From a virus (lineage: Duplodnaviria; Heunggongvirae; Uroviricota; Caudoviricetes): DNA of 32,879 nucleotides. A program made the translations under genes and the position numbers. The DNA is taken from the IMG/VR virus record IMGVR_UViG_3300022178_000016; one strand, written 5' to 3'. This document shows, piece by piece, positions 1,786 through 12,805 of this stretch (position 1 is its first letter; every line of letters begins with the position of its first letter). A model generated the notes under the pieces. That model was not told where the DNA came from, searched no databases, and saw only the letters and a list, made by a program, of their open reading frames with translations.

Positions 1786-2019
1786 ATGGTAATTAACGAA
1801 AAAGGTATAAAGTTAGGTGATAAGGTGGTTATTAATAATAGCGACTACTCTAAGGATCTGTTTACAGTAGGAAATGTTTACAGAGTTATTGAACTAATGG
1901 AGGACAGTGTAGGTTTAGCAGATAACTTTGGCAGGGGTGATGGACTTAGTGATCTTGGTGGCTGGTGTTTTTATAATGAAGAGGTGGACTTAGTAAAAAT
2001 AAATACCAATAACCCTTGA
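1786..2019 (+). CDS. hypothetical protein, possible SH3/KOW-like barrel
   Basis: IKLGDKVVI...FTVGNVYRVI pattern; SD AGGAG. Confidence 0.7.
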   Translation: MVINEKGIKLGDKVVINNSDYSKDLFTVGNVYRVIELMEDSVGLADNFGRGDGLSDLGGWCFYNEEVDLVKINTNNP

Positions 2020-2045
2020 CAAGAGGGTTAAAACCATGATACTAT
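2010..2045 (+). promoter_or_regulatory. sigma70 promoter with inverted repeat over the -35 box
   Basis: TTGACA (2016-2021), N18, TG-a-TACTAT; TAACCCT-N7-AGGGTTA inverted repeat at 2010-2030. Confidence 0.75.
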
Positions 2046-2047
2046 TG

Positions 2048-2469
2048 GGACAGGGTGAATATTCTATTAAGTGTATTCCTCTGTCCTTCTCATTTAACAG
2101 AAATGACACTTGAGATATTTGCTACTTAGAGTAAAGTAGATCGGATTGGAGAGATATGTCTAGCAATAGCTGCACTCACCGTACCAGTCCTAAAGAGCAA
2201 GAAGATACCAAGGCTCAAAGTGTGGGGTTGTGAGGGGATAACACTGGTTTAACGCCCTGTAAGGCGTAAATCCCTAACCTGATTGATTACAGTAGGATTC
2301 AGGTTGTCGCAGCTACAGGATAGCTGTTCTGCTTTATGCAGCGGGTTCATCTCGGTTGACGGAGAATGTGTCTCGGATAAAAGAACCAATGGTTTGTCTA
2401 GGTACTTTGTTTAAAGTATATGGCAAGCTATGGGATTCTTTTATCCAAATTATCTGATTTCAAAAGAAT
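2048..2469 (+). ncRNA. candidate large structured ncRNA (or RNA-primed origin)
   Basis: No credible ORF; directly downstream of a promoter; more than 10 helices found by eye (e.g. AACCTGA/TCAGGTT, CAGCTA/TAGCTG, ACGCC/GGCGT, GGACAG/CTGTCC, TTGCTA/TAGCAA) and a possible pseudoknot. Confidence 0.5.
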
Positions 2470-2513
2470 TGTTTATATTAGTATTTAAAATAGTTATTAT
2501 AGAAGAGGTTTTA

Positions 2514-3083
2514 ATGATTAAATCACAAATAGGGAATTACACTAAAGGGAAATACAAAAGTTATTCTGAAGGTAGTCTGACAAAAGAATACCGACTTTGG
2601 AAAAGCATGTTAAATAGGTGTTACGGCAAGAGCACACCAACCAGAAAGCCAACTTACAAAGGTTGCACTGTTTCAGATAACTTTAAGGATTTTCAGTTCT
2701 TTGCAGAGTGGTGCAATAATCAAGTAGGTTTTGGGAATGAGGGTTGGCAATTGGATAAAGATATACTAATCAAAGGCAACAAGGTTTATTCTGAAGACAA
2801 TTGTTGTTTTGTACCGAAAGAGATTAATTGCCTGTTTTTAGATCATCAAGCAAAGCGTGGTAACTGCCCTATTGGGGTTAGTTACCACAAGCCCCAAAAC
2901 AACTATCAAGTGTCCTTAAGTAAGTATGGTAAAGTACACAATCTTGGTTATTTCCTTGATCCCATCAATGCACATAAGCACTACATAGTTGCCAAGATAC
3001 TACATGTAAAAGAAATTGCTTTGTCCTACAAAGAGGCTATTGACCAAAGAGTTTATGAAGCCCTTATGGCTTGGGAAGGATGA
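2514..3083 (+). CDS. free-standing HNH homing endonuclease
   Basis: YRLWKSMLNRCY...PTYKGCTV...F..F..W...WQLDKDIL...YSEDNCCFVP.EIN; start re-placed at ATG 2514 after GAGG SD. Confidence 0.85.
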   Translation: MIKSQIGNYTKGKYKSYSEGSLTKEYRLWKSMLNRCYGKSTPTRKPTYKGCTVSDNFKDFQFFAEWCNNQVGFGNEGWQLDKDILIKGNKVYSEDNCCFVPKEINCLFLDHQAKRGNCPIGVSYHKPQNNYQVSLSKYGKVHNLGYFLDPINAHKHYIVAKILHVKEIALSYKEAIDQRVYEALMAWEG

Positions 3084-3169
3084 AGAACTCATTTGATTAT
3101 TTATATTAGATATAGCAGTTAATAACATAGTTAATAAGAATAAATTATAAGGGATATTTAATATAATGA

Positions 3170-3841: not shown

Positions 3842-4078
3842 ATGAGCCTAATTAAATATAAATACTGTTGGAAAGAGTTGACAGAAGAGGGTCTATTAAA
3901 AGAACCTAAACCTATTGGTTCACATTACAATGAGGTTAGTGTTAATGGCTTGTACCTCCATGGTTTTGATTCTGAACACGAGGCGGAGGTTTGGTACTCT
4001 GAGCTATTAAACGCTAATGAGTACAAGTACCAGATTCAACGAGACTTGGTGCTAATTAAGAGGGTGTTCTATGGATAA
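3842..4078 (+). CDS. hypothetical protein
   Basis: 78 aa, GGGGAG SD. Confidence 0.8.
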   Translation: MSLIKYKYCWKELTEEGLLKEPKPIGSHYNEVSVNGLYLHGFDSEHEAEVWYSELLNANEYKYQIQRDLVLIKRVFYG

Positions 4079-4280
4079 GCAAGAAATAGTCGGGAGAATG
4101 AACATTATAACTTCCAAAATAAGGGAGCTTGAAGACTGTAATCACGCTTTATGTGAAGACTTGTTATCGACAATTACAACTGAAGCTGATTGTCACGCTT
4201 TACTTAAAGATTTACAGGACAATATCGCACGCATGTACATAGCAGATAAACTTAGAAGTATACGGAGCGCTAATGGATAA
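4071..4280 (+). CDS. hypothetical protein (coiled-coil-like)
   Basis: 69 aa, overlaps the upstream stop. Confidence 0.7.
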   Translation: MDKQEIVGRMNIITSKIRELEDCNHALCEDLLSTITTEADCHALLKDLQDNIARMYIADKLRSIRSANG

Positions 4281-4316
4281 AGTAACAACAACTTAAACAG
4301 GACAGGAGAAGCTACA

Positions 4317-4502
4317 ATGAGAGATGTTAAATTAATTGCTGTTCGTACACCATCTGGTATCCGTCTAGGGTATGAGCGATATGTGGGTAAGGTTTTTAAA
4401 TACACAGGAAACAACTACGATGGTTTTCAAGTCATATTACAGGATGGTAGTAAGATACCCATGCTCCACTTCAACATCGAATATGTTGAACAGGAGAAAT
4501 AA
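4317..4502 (+). CDS. hypothetical protein
   Basis: 61 aa, AGGAG SD. Confidence 0.75.
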   Translation: MRDVKLIAVRTPSGIRLGYERYVGKVFKYTGNNYDGFQVILQDGSKIPMLHFNIEYVEQEK

Positions 4503-4503
4503 T

Positions 4504-4833
4504 ATGAACACACCAGACACCATCCAGACCTTATTCATTCGTGCTTGTAAGTCTAAAGATCCACATAAACGTGTCAACTCTGTGTATCGTAGGTTTTACT
4601 ACTCTAAAGGTAAAATAGATGATCGTCATCTGGTCTCTATTTTCATCAAGATTGTTGAGGGTTTCTGCCCTATGTCTCTTACTGAAGTGTTTGATAAGCT
4701 TCGTCCAGATGATTACTTCTTTGAAGATGATCCTTACTGGACTCGTGCTAAGAAAGTATTAATTAGTCATATTCGCTTGTCACACAGAGATTGTTTTGGT
4801 AGTATGCGTGTTCCATTAATGTTTAAGAAATAA
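4504..4833 (+). CDS. hypothetical protein
   Basis: Start re-placed at ATG 4504 (MNTPDTIQTLFIRACKSKDP) after AGGAG SD. Confidence 0.8.
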   Translation: MNTPDTIQTLFIRACKSKDPHKRVNSVYRRFYYSKGKIDDRHLVSIFIKIVEGFCPMSLTEVFDKLRPDDYFFEDDPYWTRAKKVLISHIRLSHRDCFGSMRVPLMFKK

Positions 4834-4869
4834 GGAGAAATAATATGAAATTCAACCTAGGAGAGTATA

Positions 4870-5061
4870 ATGGAATTATTTATAATTTGGTTCATGGTCG
4901 CAGTTGTACTATGTATTTGGCTCTTAATTTTCTTTGAAGATGATTTCAGTTATACTCACATAGGTTACTGTATCTTTTGGCCCGCATATTTAGTAAAGTA
5001 TGTACTACTGTTTTTACGGGAAGTTTTGAAAGCTTTATTCATTGACTTGATTGGGAGGTAA
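4870..5061 (+). CDS. small membrane protein
   Basis: Hydrophobic N-terminal helix plus a second TM-like segment; AGGAG SD. Confidence 0.75.
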   Translation: MELFIIWFMVAVVLCIWLLIFFEDDFSYTHIGYCIFWPAYLVKYVLLFLREVLKALFIDLIGR

Positions 5062-5062
5062 T

Positions 5063-5308
5063 ATGCACGAGTGTAAGCTGCTAAATAAGTTTACTGAGGG
5101 TTCACAGAGTCAGGTTATCATTAACTCTACCACTCACCCTACACGAATATCTGGTTGGTATGGGAACACAGAAGTATTCTCTGTACACATAGTGATGGGG
5201 AAATGGAGTACAGCCACATCAACCTGTCTTCCTAGTGATATAGAATTAGCTAAGAAATATGTTGACATAATGAACCAAGTTCTGTTAAAGTTACAAGAAA
5301 TCAACTGA
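5063..5308 (+). CDS. hypothetical protein
   Basis: Start at ATG 5063 after GGAGG. Confidence 0.8.
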   Translation: MHECKLLNKFTEGSQSQVIINSTTHPTRISGWYGNTEVFSVHIVMGKWSTATSTCLPSDIELAKKYVDIMNQVLLKLQEIN

Positions 5309-5319
5309 GGAGAGACACT

Positions 5320-5730
5320 ATGAAATTCAATCTAAGTATATCAAGAAATAGTCATAACCGTGTAGGTATTACGGTTAAATGTAAAACATCACGTCAAACC
5401 TTCCTTAAACTCGATTTATCGCTGGAGGAATACGCAGAAGTTATTACAGGGTTATCCCACGTGGAAATTGAGGGTGTTGTCAATGGAATGAATCTTGTAG
5501 GTAAAGAGAAGCTTGTAGAAGCAAGAACAGTTAGAGTAGATGAAACTATAGGGTTTCAAGGAAAAGAGTTAGTTGCAGCTTGGTTGTCACGTAATTGTAA
5601 GGAAGAAGGTTGGGAGTTAGATACGTATCTAGGTAGCCAGAAGTCAATTGTCTACGATCACACCAACATGAATTACATAATTAACTACTCTGTTTATAAG
5701 TATGTAGAGTCTGCACTGGAAGCAATGTAA
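5320..5730 (+). CDS. hypothetical protein
   Basis: 136 aa, GAGGAG SD. Confidence 0.85.
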   Translation: MKFNLSISRNSHNRVGITVKCKTSRQTFLKLDLSLEEYAEVITGLSHVEIEGVVNGMNLVGKEKLVEARTVRVDETIGFQGKELVAAWLSRNCKEEGWELDTYLGSQKSIVYDHTNMNYIINYSVYKYVESALEAM

Positions 5731-5815
5731 GCTATTTAAACCAAAACCCTAGCCTTACTATTTCTTTAAGGTTAAAACGTCTCCTAGAGCTTCTGAGAGC
5801 CTTCTAGGGGTATTA
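5728..5815 (+). repeat. two-hairpin intergenic element, copy B
   Basis: TAAGCT...AGCCTTA/TAAGGTT hairpin, GTTAAAACGTC, CCTAGA/TCTAGG hairpin, GGGTATTA. Confidence 0.7.
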
Positions 5816-5839
5816 TAGAATTATGTGGAGGAAATAATT

Positions 5840-6085
5840 ATGTCAAATTATTCAGACAACCCCAACATGTGCCGTGTAGACTTCTTCAAGTCTTCTGGTA
5901 AGTGGTATACAACAGAAGCTGTGGAGTTCTTGAGTGAACATTATCACAGTCATCCAAACACAGCATTAGCTCATGCTCTACAGAAACACTTTGGAGATAC
6001 ACCTAAACTCTCAGGAATGACTGCTGTATGCTTACATCCCTATGTTGAGAATTCTTACCCAATCAGTATTGTGAATATAGGTTAA
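5840..6085 (+). CDS. hypothetical protein
   Basis: Start at ATG 5840 after GGAGG; RVDFFKSSGKWY motif. Confidence 0.8.
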   Translation: MSNYSDNPNMCRVDFFKSSGKWYTTEAVEFLSEHYHSHPNTALAHALQKHFGDTPKLSGMTAVCLHPYVENSYPISIVNIG

Positions 6086-8426: not shown

Positions 8427-9254
8427 ATGTGGGTAAAGATTAGTAAACCAGAAGATACAAAGAAGTTGAAAGTGGGCGATAAAGTTCGTGTAGACGGAAC
8501 AGAGTATAAATGTACTCACACCTATTATTCACCAACAGATTATGGGTTCGATATTTATGGAAAGTTACCTCATGGTGGTAGGGTATTATCTCATGGGTGT
8601 GTTAGACGTTTTGAGTACACAATTGAATTATGGGAAGGGGAGGAAACAACTATGAACAAACAGTATAAAATTAAGTTGAGAAAAGGTGATGCTTGTAAGA
8701 TTGAAGGGTTGACAGAAGAACAATACCATCAAGTTTGTAAGAGATTTATCAATAGTGGGGCTAGTAGTGACTATTACAGAGAGAAGACCTTTCAAGAATA
8801 CCTTAAGGATTACGACTATGTTATGTGGTATTGTCTAAGTCTCTGCCCTTGTTATCGGAAGGAATTAGAACCAAACGCAACAATTTACACTTATGAACAA
8901 ATAATGGAGGAGGAAAATCAAATGTTAGAACGTGATAAAGAGTATGATATTAAACTTACTGGGGAGGAGTTGTTCCTATTCACCTTTATGCTAGGTCAAA
9001 GTAACAGTTCCCTTAGTGGCGCCACTTATGAAAAATTGAAGAAAATGTTTATCCCCGAATTCGAGAGTTTACTGAATTCCATTTCCACTTTGAAGACCAT
9101 AGACTTATATTCCCATAAGTCTGAAATTATAGGAATCATGGATAAGGTATTCCCCAAACCAGAAACAGAACAAGAGAAGAAAATCCGAGAGATGGAAGAA
9201 CAATATGCAGCTCTTGGCAAAGCTATTGAGGAAGTTAAGAAGGGAAGTAAATAA
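8427..9254 (+). CDS. modular hypothetical protein with C-terminal coiled coil; nested in-frame starts at 8652 and 8922
   Basis: GGAGG SDs precede ATG 8427, 8652 and 8922, all in one frame. Confidence 0.8.
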   Translation: MWVKISKPEDTKKLKVGDKVRVDGTEYKCTHTYYSPTDYGFDIYGKLPHGGRVLSHGCVRRFEYTIELWEGEETTMNKQYKIKLRKGDACKIEGLTEEQYHQVCKRFINSGASSDYYREKTFQEYLKDYDYVMWYCLSLCPCYRKELEPNATIYTYEQIMEEENQMLERDKEYDIKLTGEELFLFTFMLGQSNSSLSGATYEKLKKMFIPEFESLLNSISTLKTIDLYSHKSEIIGIMDKVFPKPETEQEKKIREMEEQYAALGKAIEEVKKGSK

Positions 9255-9979: not shown

Positions 9980-10007
9980 TTTACAAATAAATAAATTAGT
10001 GTAGTAT
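9980..10007 (+). promoter_or_regulatory. sigma70 promoter driving tRNA-like RNAs
   Basis: AAATAACCC-TTTACA-N16-TAGTAT; the 16-bp AAATAACCCTTTACAA is identical to 630-645. Confidence 0.75.
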
Positions 10008-10033
10008 TAATAACAAGCCCTTGGTGACAGGGG

Positions 10034-10112
10034 CATTTCTAAAGTCTTCTGGCATGGAAGTAAAAGGTAGCTCCTTTAAGGGTTCGAGTCCCTTCAGAAG
10101 ACTTTAGAAATG
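10034..10112 (+). ncRNA. minimal tRNA-like RNA with 18-bp closing stem
   Basis: Perfect 18-bp inverted repeat 10034-10051/10095-10112 enclosing GCATGGAAGTA, hairpin AAAGG-TAGCT-CCTTT and T arm AAGGG-TTCGAGT-CCCTT. Confidence 0.65.
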
Positions 10113-10122
10113 AATAAATTAA

Positions 10123-10210
10123 GTCCGGTGTACCCACATCATTCTTCTAAAGTGATGACATTAAATAGTGGGATGGAAGTCAAGTGGTTCGATACCACCA
10201 CCGGATACCA
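10123..10210 (+). tRNA. non-canonical D-armless tRNA-like RNA, anticodon TCT (Arg)
   Basis: Acceptor GTCCGGTG/CACCGGAT + A + CCA; T arm GTGG-TTCGATA-CCAC; anticodon arm CATCATT-CTTCTAA-AGTGATG; no D arm. Confidence 0.65.
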
Positions 10211-11436: not shown

Positions 11437-11994
11437 ATGAAACCTTTATTATTCATTATCCTAATAGGGTTGAGCCTTCCTATAAAGCCCGTAGAGCCAC
11501 GTTATGCAGGTTACCTAGGCAATCCTATTACCGAGGTTAAGAAAGAGCTTGTAGAGCCTTCTACTGAGGTACAAAAGGTCGCTGTGATTACAGATGACCC
11601 TGACACATGGACTGAACATGAGTGTTTGGCAAGGAATGTCTACTGGGAGAGCAAGGGGGAGGGTGTTAAGGGTATGGCACTAACCGCTCAAATCACCCTA
11701 AACCGTGTCAACAGTAATAAGAGGTATTTTCCTAATACTGTATGCCAAGTAGTTAGACAAAAACTCACTAGAGGGTGCAGCTTTAGTTGGTTCTGTGACG
11801 GTAAGTCAGATAAACCTAGAGAGTTGGCAAGGTTTGAAGAAGCAAAAGAAGTTGCAACAAAGGCTTTACAAGGTGAGTACAAGGACTTAATAAAAGTAAA
11901 GTATTATAAGCGTTGTGACACTCCCAGTGACTTCTTCAATACTCTTGTTTATAAATTTAGGTATAAGAATCACTGTTACTACTCAGAGGGTTGA
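11437..11994 (+). CDS. SleB/Hydrolase_2 family cell wall hydrolase with N-terminal hydrophobic anchor/signal
   Basis: CLARNVYWESKGE...LNRVNS...FPNTVCQVV...C(S)FSW; catalytic Glu in the YWES motif. Confidence 0.9.
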   Translation: MKPLLFIILIGLSLPIKPVEPRYAGYLGNPITEVKKELVEPSTEVQKVAVITDDPDTWTEHECLARNVYWESKGEGVKGMALTAQITLNRVNSNKRYFPNTVCQVVRQKLTRGCSFSWFCDGKSDKPRELARFEEAKEVATKALQGEYKDLIKVKYYKRCDTPSDFFNTLVYKFRYKNHCYYSEG

Positions 11995-12010
11995 GGGGAG
12001 GGTATTTAAT

Positions 12011-12805
12011 ATGAAGGACATTAAGAGTTTAGAACTTAGTAAAGACTTACACGGACTGTGGACAGACCCCACTGATTTAATCAGTAAACAGTACAATGGG
12101 TGTATTATTATTGAGTATTGTGGATGGGCGTGGGACGTAACAAAAAGAAGGAAACACTGGTATAAGATAGAATGTTTTTGCGGGGCACCATTCTACACCA
12201 ATCACACGATGCTGCGGTACAACTCCATCAAAGGTTGTGGTTGTTCTAGGGAGTCTTCTAGTAAAACCCATAACAGAAGTAATGATAAGGTCTACAGGAA
12301 CTATCATGGGATGTTAAATAGGTGCTATAACCCTAAACACGATGCGTATGATAACTACGGTGGTAGAGGTATCCGTGTCTGCGATAGGTGGCGTATGAAG
12401 GTACAAGGGTTCTATAACTTCCTAGAGGACATGGGGGAGATTCCTGAGGGGTTAAGCTTAGACAGGATTGACGTTAACGGAAATTATGCACCTGATAACT
12501 GTAGGTGGGCAACTAAAACAGAACAGAATTATAATCAACGAAAGAGGAAAGATAACACTTCAGGGGTTACTGGGGTTAGGTTGGAACCTAGGTACAATAC
12601 TTGGGTTGCTTCCATAAGAATTAACAAGAAAATTATACATCTAGGTTCTTACAAAACCCGCTATGAGGCATATTTAGCTAGGATTGGAGGGGAATTACTA
12701 CACTATGGCGTAATAAAACAGCCAGTTTTTAATACTGAGGAAGACTTTTATAAGTATATACAAGGCTATGTTCAAAGTCTGTCAATTCTCCTACTGGAAC
12801 AATAA
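12011..12805 (+). CDS. free-standing HNH homing endonuclease (HNH plus AP2-like C-terminus)
   Basis: MLNRCYNP...YGGRGIRVCDRW...SLDRIDVNGNYAPDNCRWAT...QN...DNTSGVTGV; start at ATG 12011 after GGAGG. Confidence 0.9.
   Translation: MKDIKSLELSKDLHGLWTDPTDLISKQYNGCIIIEYCGWAWDVTKRRKHWYKIECFCGAPFYTNHTMLRYNSIKGCGCSRESSSKTHNRSNDKVYRNYHGMLNRCYNPKHDAYDNYGGRGIRVCDRWRMKVQGFYNFLEDMGEIPEGLSLDRIDVNGNYAPDNCRWATKTEQNYNQRKRKDNTSGVTGVRLEPRYNTWVASIRINKKIIHLGSYKTRYEAYLARIGGELLHYGVIKQPVFNTEEDFYKYIQGYVQSLSILLLEQ

Follow-up and report, generated by a model that had tools for sequence, protein, structure and literature searches.

The stretch of DNA studied here, 32,879 nucleotides (nt) of the virus record IMGVR_UViG_3300022178_000016 (Caudoviricetes), is referred to at its full length as the window. 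The source genome measures 96.9 kb with direct terminal repeats according to IMG/VR, and its closest named relative is Alteromonas phage PT11-V22, with 66% identity in the DNA polymerase. The subject of this study is an element at 2140-2477 on the + strand, which lies in a run of small + strand genes, each of them preceded by a sigma70-like promoter. No open reading frame (ORF) of at least 50 aa is present on either strand across 2020-2429; this gap ranks third in length among such ORF-free gaps genome-wide and has the highest GC content (0.42) of the long ones, and the GC content of 0.464 at 2151-2400 (250-nt interval) corresponds to the 97.7th percentile for the genome. The lack of a credible ORF and the raised GC content, both of which had been pointed out in a preliminary description made from the letters alone, were thus borne out. 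That description had set the boundaries of a densely paired region at 2048-2469, but the conserved unit is 2140-2477. The best overall explanation, and a highly probable one, is that this unit is a structured non-coding RNA (ncRNA) of about 320 nt which belongs, as a divergent member, to a conserved RNA family of phages outside Rfam 15. Its parts are given below, in which R1 is the covariance model (CM) of the family and L046 is a metagenome contig carrying a second copy.

2140-2477 (+): conserved structured RNA, defined by a full-length R1 match and an 89%-identical block in L046; family size about 280-340 nt
2143-2190 (+): 5' core domain, with P1 pairing GGAUUGG (2143-2149) and CCAGUCC (2184-2190)
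2195-2216 (+): P2 hairpin, GAGC (2195-2198) with GCUC (2213-2216), invariant GAAGA in the loop; 4/4 pairs (family helix 3) covary
2234-2275 (+): P3 domain, GGGAU (2235-2239) with AUCCC (2270-2274), placed on family helices 5 and 6 by CM alignment
2276-2305 (+): lineage-specific hairpin AACCUGA/UCAGGUU, in the window and L046 only; an insertion relative to the family model
2309-2327 (+): P4 hairpin, GCAGCUA/UAGCUGU with loop CAGGA; family helix 7, assigned via L046
2329-2341 (+): P5 hairpin, CUGC/GCAG; family helix 8 (CCUGC..GCAGG), assigned via L046; 5/5 pairs covary
2349-2370 (+): conserved joining segment AUCUC ... GAGAAUGUG, common to phiPsa374, preceding the long hairpin
2375-2446 (+): P7, the long 3' hairpin, dG -33.5 kcal/mol and z -6.8, against -20.3 kcal/mol on the - strand; family helices 10-14, which covary

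When phage genomes were searched with the element by permissive blastn, a weak 35-nt match, TGGAGAGATATGTCT..CACTCACCG, was returned from phiPsa374-like Pseudomonas phages. It sits in an unannotated ORF-free gap of 847 nt in these phages, directly 3' of a TTGACG-17-TAGTAT promoter, and the gap region is kept at 73-100% in 65 records from Otagovirus, Flaumdravirus, unclassified phages of about 95 kb and one Pectobacterium phage. The invariant motifs GAGAUAUGUC and CACUCACCG were the route to the family as a whole, i.e., the 65 phage records and 35 IMG/VR contigs (about 100 in total). When 16 diverse copies were aligned with MAFFT (alignment A3), a structure of 63 pairs was obtained with RNAalifold, and compensatory changes occurred in 27 of the 63. 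The model R1 was built from these 16 copies, of Pseudomonas and Pectobacterium phages only, the window being excluded. It matched the window at 2140-2477 (+) over model positions 1-308, its full length, with 44.8 bits (E 5.6e-13), and this was its only match in the window and in the whole genome. The match is an independent test of homology, and its boundaries agree with the homology block of L046, a copy that itself scored 47.4 bits against R1. With R2, a model of the 5' core, 74 bits were obtained at 2138-2252.

A scan of IMG/VR for GAGATATGTC-N4-16-CACTCACCG returned 35 loci, all 35 of them matched by R1 at 28-312 bits. Among 32 distinct sequences, 93.1% of the cells paired, versus 69.7% after shuffling and 38-40% with slid partners; compensatory changes were present in 50 of the 63 pairs, and none of 500 shuffles reached any of these measures. 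An alignment of 18 sequences gave the same covariation picture. In the Rfam scan, which the preliminary description had proposed, the window had no match among the 4227 models of Rfam 15 even at E up to 10. No Rfam 15 model was found for five Pseudomonas-phage copies (E up to 1), for the relatives of L046 or for the IMG/VR copies, at gathering or permissive thresholds, and no description of the family was found in the papers searched on these motifs, Otagovirus and structured phage RNAs. The family is new and matches no known family, whereas orphan structured phage RNAs are already known as a phenomenon. Among the three options considered in the preliminary description, that of a large phage ncRNA is the one that agrees with a conserved, covarying RNA whose family is absent from Rfam 15.

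The copy in L046 was found by a degenerate multi-pattern (six-pattern) scan of JGI metagenomes. Positions 414-747 of this contig are 89% identical to window 2141-2477, and the flanks are unrelated on both sides. The two copies are separated by indels of 1, 2, and 1 nt, stops occur in all frames and no frame is open in both, because of which a shared ORF is excluded and the element is non-coding. Between them there are four compensatory pairs in P7 and one in P1. The RNA is that of the + strand, on which the long hairpin has a dG of -33.5 kcal/mol in the window and -35.9 kcal/mol in L046, versus -20.3 and -18.5 kcal/mol on the - strand. Two other foldings were rejected: the single-sequence core fold (the minimum-free-energy fold of the window only, outside P7), in which 9 of 12 changed pairs are broken in L046, and the RNAalifold closing helix 2146-2156/2452-2464, which clashes with P1. 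A 57-aa minus-strand ORF of L046 was tried as a route through spurious ORFs, and the search with it yielded no real relatives. The six-pattern scan gave no match in GTDB, and its IMG/VR hit L045 was a false match, antisense within a 1179-aa gene.

Three elements lie within P1: first AGAGAUAUGUC (2150-2160), then a variable hairpin (2161-2172), and last CACUCACCG (2173-2181). Both motifs are invariant in 23 diverse copies. P1 covaries between the window and L046 (GGAUUGG/CCAGUCC vs. GGAUUGA/UCAAUCU), and 7/7 of its pairs covary family-wide. What all members have in common is the 5' core, about 100 nt long, and some IMG/VR copies match there only. P3 contains an inner hairpin, CGCC/GGCG (2253-2256 with 2263-2266), with GUAA in its loop; family helices 5 and 6 covary in the family, and the comparison of the window with L046 shows no informative change in P3. 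The single change of L046 in the hairpin at 2276-2305 (at 2298) lies in the loop. In P4, G2309-U2327 is replaced by A-U in L046, and 4/4 pairs of helix 7 covary in the family. P6 and a long-range 3-bp helix of the family are not kept in the window. The internal loop of P7 places GUCUAGG (2396-2402) opposite UAUGGC (2419-2424), of which AGG and UAUGG are kept in 18/18 copies, and we take it to resemble the 11-nt GAAA-tetraloop receptor. Many copies, those of Pseudomonas phages included, have GAAA or GCAA tetraloops, and by this analogy the tetraloops and the receptor-like loop suggest a compact tertiary fold.

In the Pseudomonas-phage copies L048-L063, a direct repeat of about 20-25 nt stands on either side of the long hairpin, e.g., at ~1665-1690 and ~1775-1800 of L048. 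The repeat differs between phages and matches within a phage (self 23.2, non-self 12.7, shuffled 10.0). In the window and L046, a direct repeat flanking P7 was not above chance.

Several helices listed in the preliminary description have a place in this structure. GAGC/GCTC is P2 of the family, GGGAT/ATCCC is P3 and ACGCC/GGCGT its inner hairpin, CAGCTA/TAGCTG is P4, and TACTTT/AAAGTA forms the tip of P7. GGACAG/CTGTCC was also supported, as a leader hairpin which is outside the conserved RNA. AACCTGA/TCAGGTT holds as a hairpin unchanged in L046, but it is specific to this lineage and corresponds to no family helix. Four further pairings were not supported: TTGCTA/TAGCAA straddles the 5' boundary of the element, CTCAC/GTGAG would use the invariant CACUCACCG loop, ATTCTTTT/AAAAGAAT competes with P7, and the pseudoknot ACCAGT/ACTGGT, which L046 has lost, would occupy the 3' strand of P1.

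The density of pairing claimed for the region was only partly reproduced. The entire 431 nt has a fold z of -3.8 on either strand, and 0/100 shuffles fold equally well. However, the thermodynamic signal is confined to the two end hairpins, 2047-2087 (z -5.3) and 2375-2446 (dG -33.5 kcal/mol, z -6.8), and the central 287 nt (2088-2374), in which most of the listed helices lie, is no better than shuffles (z -0.34; 74/200 as good). A genome-wide scan of 200-nt folds agrees with the lack of excess folding in the central part. Judged on energy alone, most of the short helices are at chance level, and a folding-energy test by itself would have thrown out the core of the RNA.

This lack of excess folding energy in the central part weighs against the explanation given above, as does the poor alignment of P4-P6 of the window by the CM, with P4 and P5 in insert states; these helices were assigned through L046. 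The alignments A4 and A5 were fitted to the model and the pair counts are somewhat inflated as a result, although the MAFFT-based A3 agrees and the margin is large.

The distribution of the RNA is patchy. In the close relatives G001, G002, G003, G004 and PT11-V22, no copy was found by blastn, nhmmer, tblastn, R1 or R2; besides PT11-V22, two complete genomes are included in these relatives. The RNA is therefore a module with patchy spread, as its absence from the closest relatives of the window phage implies. The proteins flanking the RNA in the window are orphans. The upstream 77-aa protein occurs in 14 contigs, and the five loci compared over the RNA region were 100% identical to the window and thus added no variation. 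Exact-word scans of IMG/VR and GTDB genomes with window-specific 20-23-mers gave no match. In at least six of the GenBank records inspected (e.g., Bitten, VCM, M5.1, 16Q, KIL1, and phiK7A1), short hypothetical ORFs are annotated across the RNA.

The features around the RNA in the window are as follows.

2016-2045 (+): sigma70-type promoter, -35 TTGACA (2016-2021), 18-nt spacer, extended -10 TG-n-TACTAT (2037-2045; TACTAT 2040-2045)
2047-2087 (+): 5' leader hairpin of this phage only, outside the conserved RNA; dG -20.7 kcal/mol, z -5.3
2103-2137 (+): two weak promoter-like sites, ATGACA-18-TAGAGT and TTGAGA-16-TAAAGT, with 9/12 matches each
2468-3109 (+): HNH homing-endonuclease cassette with its gene at 2514-3083; context, outside the RNA

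The ORF 5' of the RNA has a stop codon of its own, at which it ends (2019), and is followed by the promoter at 2016-2045. This promoter is similar to other early promoters nearby (315, 3170, 3780, and 5262), and a transcript from it would begin near 2052. The leader hairpin, with a dG of -13.5 kcal/mol on the - strand versus -20.7 kcal/mol on the + strand, has no counterpart in L046 or in the RNA family. The -10 boxes of the two weak sites finish 8 and 3 nt 5' of the start of the RNA, and either site could be a proximal promoter. In Pseudomonas-phage copies the -10 box finishes 9-11 nt 5' of the fifth base of the model match. A sigma70-type -10 box was found 9-10 nt before the RNA in nine of the 11 top-scoring Otagovirus-like IMG/VR copies and likewise in three of the four copies of intermediate score. 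Going by the position of these boxes, transcription in the Otagovirus-like and intermediate copies starts where the RNA itself starts. The window does not show this feature; its strong promoter is about 95 nt 5' of the RNA with the leader hairpin between, and the proximal sites are weak. No sigma70-like promoter was present within 130 nt of 13 divergent IMG/VR copies, and a promoter at the start of the RNA is thus a feature of a subgroup only.

On the 3' side, the RNA of the Otagovirus-like and intermediate copies is succeeded first by a CA-rich linker, then by a start-stop mini-ORF and then by a small Cys-rich ORF. The mini-ORF is conserved at ~1850-1880 of L048 and at equivalent Otagovirus sites (AAGGAG, 6 nt, ATGAAATAA or similar), and in Otagovirus it directly precedes the small Cys-rich ORF (MRCKCCD...). 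A tRNA island lies 0.7-1.2 kb 3' of the RNA on the same strand in 11 of the 15 Otagovirus-like or intermediate IMG/VR copies, and in phiPsa374 a second strong promoter is located between the RNA and the island. In L072, a 103-nt match to the 5' core (9081-9183) stands behind a TTGACT-18-TATAAT promoter, and an island of 16 tRNAs (3849-6075) is found about 3 kb downstream on the same strand. In the divergent copies the next co-directional ORF is 25-100 nt away or overlapping. In four divergent IMG/VR loci (L069 904-2394, L071, L082, and L076 5874-7256), a gene for an SF2 helicase (ResIII + Helicase_C) adjoins the RNA; three loci have it downstream and one has it upstream. No terminator was found after any copy examined. 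No reverse transcriptase, as would accompany a retron msr-msd RNA, was recognised either: the ORFs at the window copy are without Pfam domain, and the six scanned ORFs beside other copies gave helicase, methylase and DUF only. In L046, a near-consensus promoter is located about 70 nt 5' of the RNA, and an AT-rich spacer and then a DUF7352 gene follow, without an HNH gene.

As to how the RNA may work, it would be an early product of the host RNA polymerase, started from the promoter at 2016-2045 and perhaps also from a weaker proximal site in 2103-2137. It folds into the 5' core (P1 around AGAGAUAUGUC and CACUCACCG), the hairpins P2 to P5 and the long 3' hairpin P7 with its conserved internal loop. 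The RNA is a self-contained module that has moved between unrelated phage backbones, and the HNH gene was inserted behind it later. The data show its homology, secondary structure, strand, non-coding character and independence of the HNH gene, whereas its mode of action is inferred. Our leading guess, which is a tentative one, is that it acts in cis as a leader domain heading early transcripts and binds a factor, be it a small ligand, a protein or the polymerase that transcribes it; on binding, it would control the downstream genes at the level of expression, read-through or stability. This cis-leader reading is favoured because of the absence of terminators and the position at the transcript head or tight against the next ORF. 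What speaks against it is that the downstream genes vary by lineage (HNH, DUF7352, small Cys-rich ORF, SF2 helicase), that in several copies a distance of 37 to about 100 nt separates the RNA from the following start codon, and that no expression platform was identified.

A trans-acting stable RNA is kept in play because of the modular spread and the varied downstream genes, but it is the less probable of the two mechanisms. In this case the fold of about 300 nt would be released from the early transcript and would bind or sequester a host or phage protein, or form an RNA particle, a role that has been suggested for other orphan phage RNAs of large size. Such a role would be in line with a self-contained unit in unrelated backbones, heterogeneous downstream genes, a strong promoter and the invariance of many unpaired nucleotides, and the GAAA/GCAA tetraloops of the Pseudomonas copies together with the receptor-like loop may be read in the same way. 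However, no terminator or defined 3' end was found, and a sigma70-like promoter is missing from the 130 nt around the 13 divergent copies.

In a wider proposal, which we regard as speculative and rather unlikely as it stands, the family could be a new class of compact phage RNA of about 300 nt with a tetraloop-receptor architecture and its own activity early in infection, e.g., as a ribozyme, a ligand sensor or a capturer of a host protein or defence factor, and could spread as a module among unrelated phages of Pseudomonas, marine and other bacteria. To our knowledge, large RNA families with such covariation and no known function are rare. Past families of that sort proved to be ribozymes, riboswitches or RNA-protein machines. 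Since the family is present in cultured and genetically tractable phages used in crop biocontrol (phiPsa374, the KIL phages, and P. putida phages), its role is directly testable.

Some known systems are comparable. ROOL (RF03087) and GOLLD (RF01998), which occur in phages and prophages, are also large multi-helix RNAs without known function. Both are often near tRNA genes, and many members of the present family lie 0.7-1.2 kb upstream of a same-strand tRNA island. However, this RNA has about 280-340 nt versus about 580 and 800 nt, none of its copies is matched by an Rfam model, and its carriers are lytic myoviruses of about 95 kb infecting Gammaproteobacteria, in which it is promoter-proximal and has no terminator. 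The putL/putR sites of HK022 and the nut sites of lambda (boxA/boxB), promoter-proximal leader RNAs with an effect on the transcribing polymerase, are alike in standing at the start of an early unit with a host-type promoter, so placed that the present RNA would likewise be co-transcribed with the downstream genes. The put element is about 70 nt with two hairpins, whereas this RNA is about 300 nt with 13-14 helices, shows no sequence likeness and no boxA, and in phiPsa374 is separated from the tRNA island by the second promoter. The orphan phage motifs of Rfam (e.g., Proteo-phage-1, RF03044) are likewise conserved structured RNAs of early regions in Proteobacteria phages discovered by comparison, but none of the 4227 Rfam 15 models matched. 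Group I introns occur in the relative G001 (two RF00028 matches) and often carry HNH genes; here, in contrast, the search that gave the two G001 matches yielded no RF00028 match at E up to 10, and there is no split host gene. The preliminary description had seen no group I or tmRNA core, with which the RF00028 result and the absence of a tmRNA in ARAGORN are in accordance.

A transcript-primed (R-loop) replication origin of the ColE1 RNA II or T4 oriF type, in which a promoter and a structured primer RNA would be combined with an AT-rich tract for unwinding, is improbable; an origin of the R-loop kind had also been suggested in the preliminary description. A promoter before and an AT-rich tract after the element are present in both the window and L046, and an SF2 helicase gene adjoins some divergent members. 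Nevertheless, AT-rich spacers are commonplace between the genes of this genome, no iterons were found, and the minimum of the cumulative GC skew, together with a strand switch, lies about 20 kb away (window -17862). Moreover, the hairpins are much more stable as + strand RNA, since the G-U pairs leave far weaker helices on the opposite strand, and the covariation keeps RNA pairs, G-U included. At window -17862, i.e., about 17.9 kb 5' of the window start, the skew minimum falls together with a 655-nt gap free of ORFs, where the genes change from the - to the + strand; an origin or a divergent control region is more plausibly sought at this site.

The adjacent HNH gene is independent of the RNA. 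Its cassette is bracketed by a 14-nt direct repeat, ATTGTTTATATTAG (2468-2481) and ATTATTTATATTAG (3096-3109), identical at 13/14 positions, and the homology to L046 stops at 2477, where the cassette starts; the gene is therefore a later insertion behind the RNA. It probably benefits from the promoter of the RNA. The protein of 189 aa is of the phrog_953 homing-endonuclease type, without Pfam match, and has no RuvC or IscB features. Over stretches of 100-240 nt, its DNA is 70-81% identical to that of HNH genes in Acinetobacter phages. Window aside, the only member with a nearby HNH gene among those whose surroundings were inspected is phage 16Q, in which a separate annotated HNH homing endonuclease lies about 350 nt 3' of the RNA copy (L056 1061-1159). 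This case fits homing endonucleases settling beside conserved sequence.

It is therefore very improbable that the RNA is a cofactor or guide of the adjacent nuclease, like the HEARO/omega RNA of IscB, as the preliminary description had also considered. The likeness is that of a structured RNA of a few hundred nt beside an HNH-containing gene in the window, to which the HNH gene behind the 16Q copy could be added. However, the L046 copy precedes a DUF7352 gene, the other inspected copies except 16Q have no HNH gene nearby, the HNH gene here is a free-standing phrog_953 homing endonuclease inserted later as a cassette within the direct repeat, and no Rfam HEARO match was obtained. Recurrent insertion of homing endonucleases beside conserved sequence is a simpler account of the adjacency. 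A decayed gene, or a chance structure without function, could explain the lack of excess folding energy in the central part and the orphan flanking genes but is hardly credible, as 50/63 pairs covary, Pseudomonas and marine phages share the motifs without any change and the indels are not multiples of three. The pseudogene idea was tried separately and rejected, with no protein similarity in six frames.

A few further observations concern the same genome and its relatives. ARAGORN found no tRNA and no tmRNA in the window; the genome has one tRNA-Trp elsewhere. The group I introns of G001, a 93-kb relative, are at 11827-12047 and 14308-14528 of L024, with 47.7 and 80.6 bits. G001 (68424-68753; L024) and G002 (47634-48144; L028) have in common a conserved element that is ORF-free, raised in GC and without Rfam match, and in G002 it is followed by an ORF beginning MNNIEWRVIPDFPMYKISEYGDIYS, by which it resembles the first residues of a NUMOD4-type homing endonuclease. 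In the window itself, the 200-nt fold at 10001-10200 has a z of -4.9, the fifth most negative in the genome.

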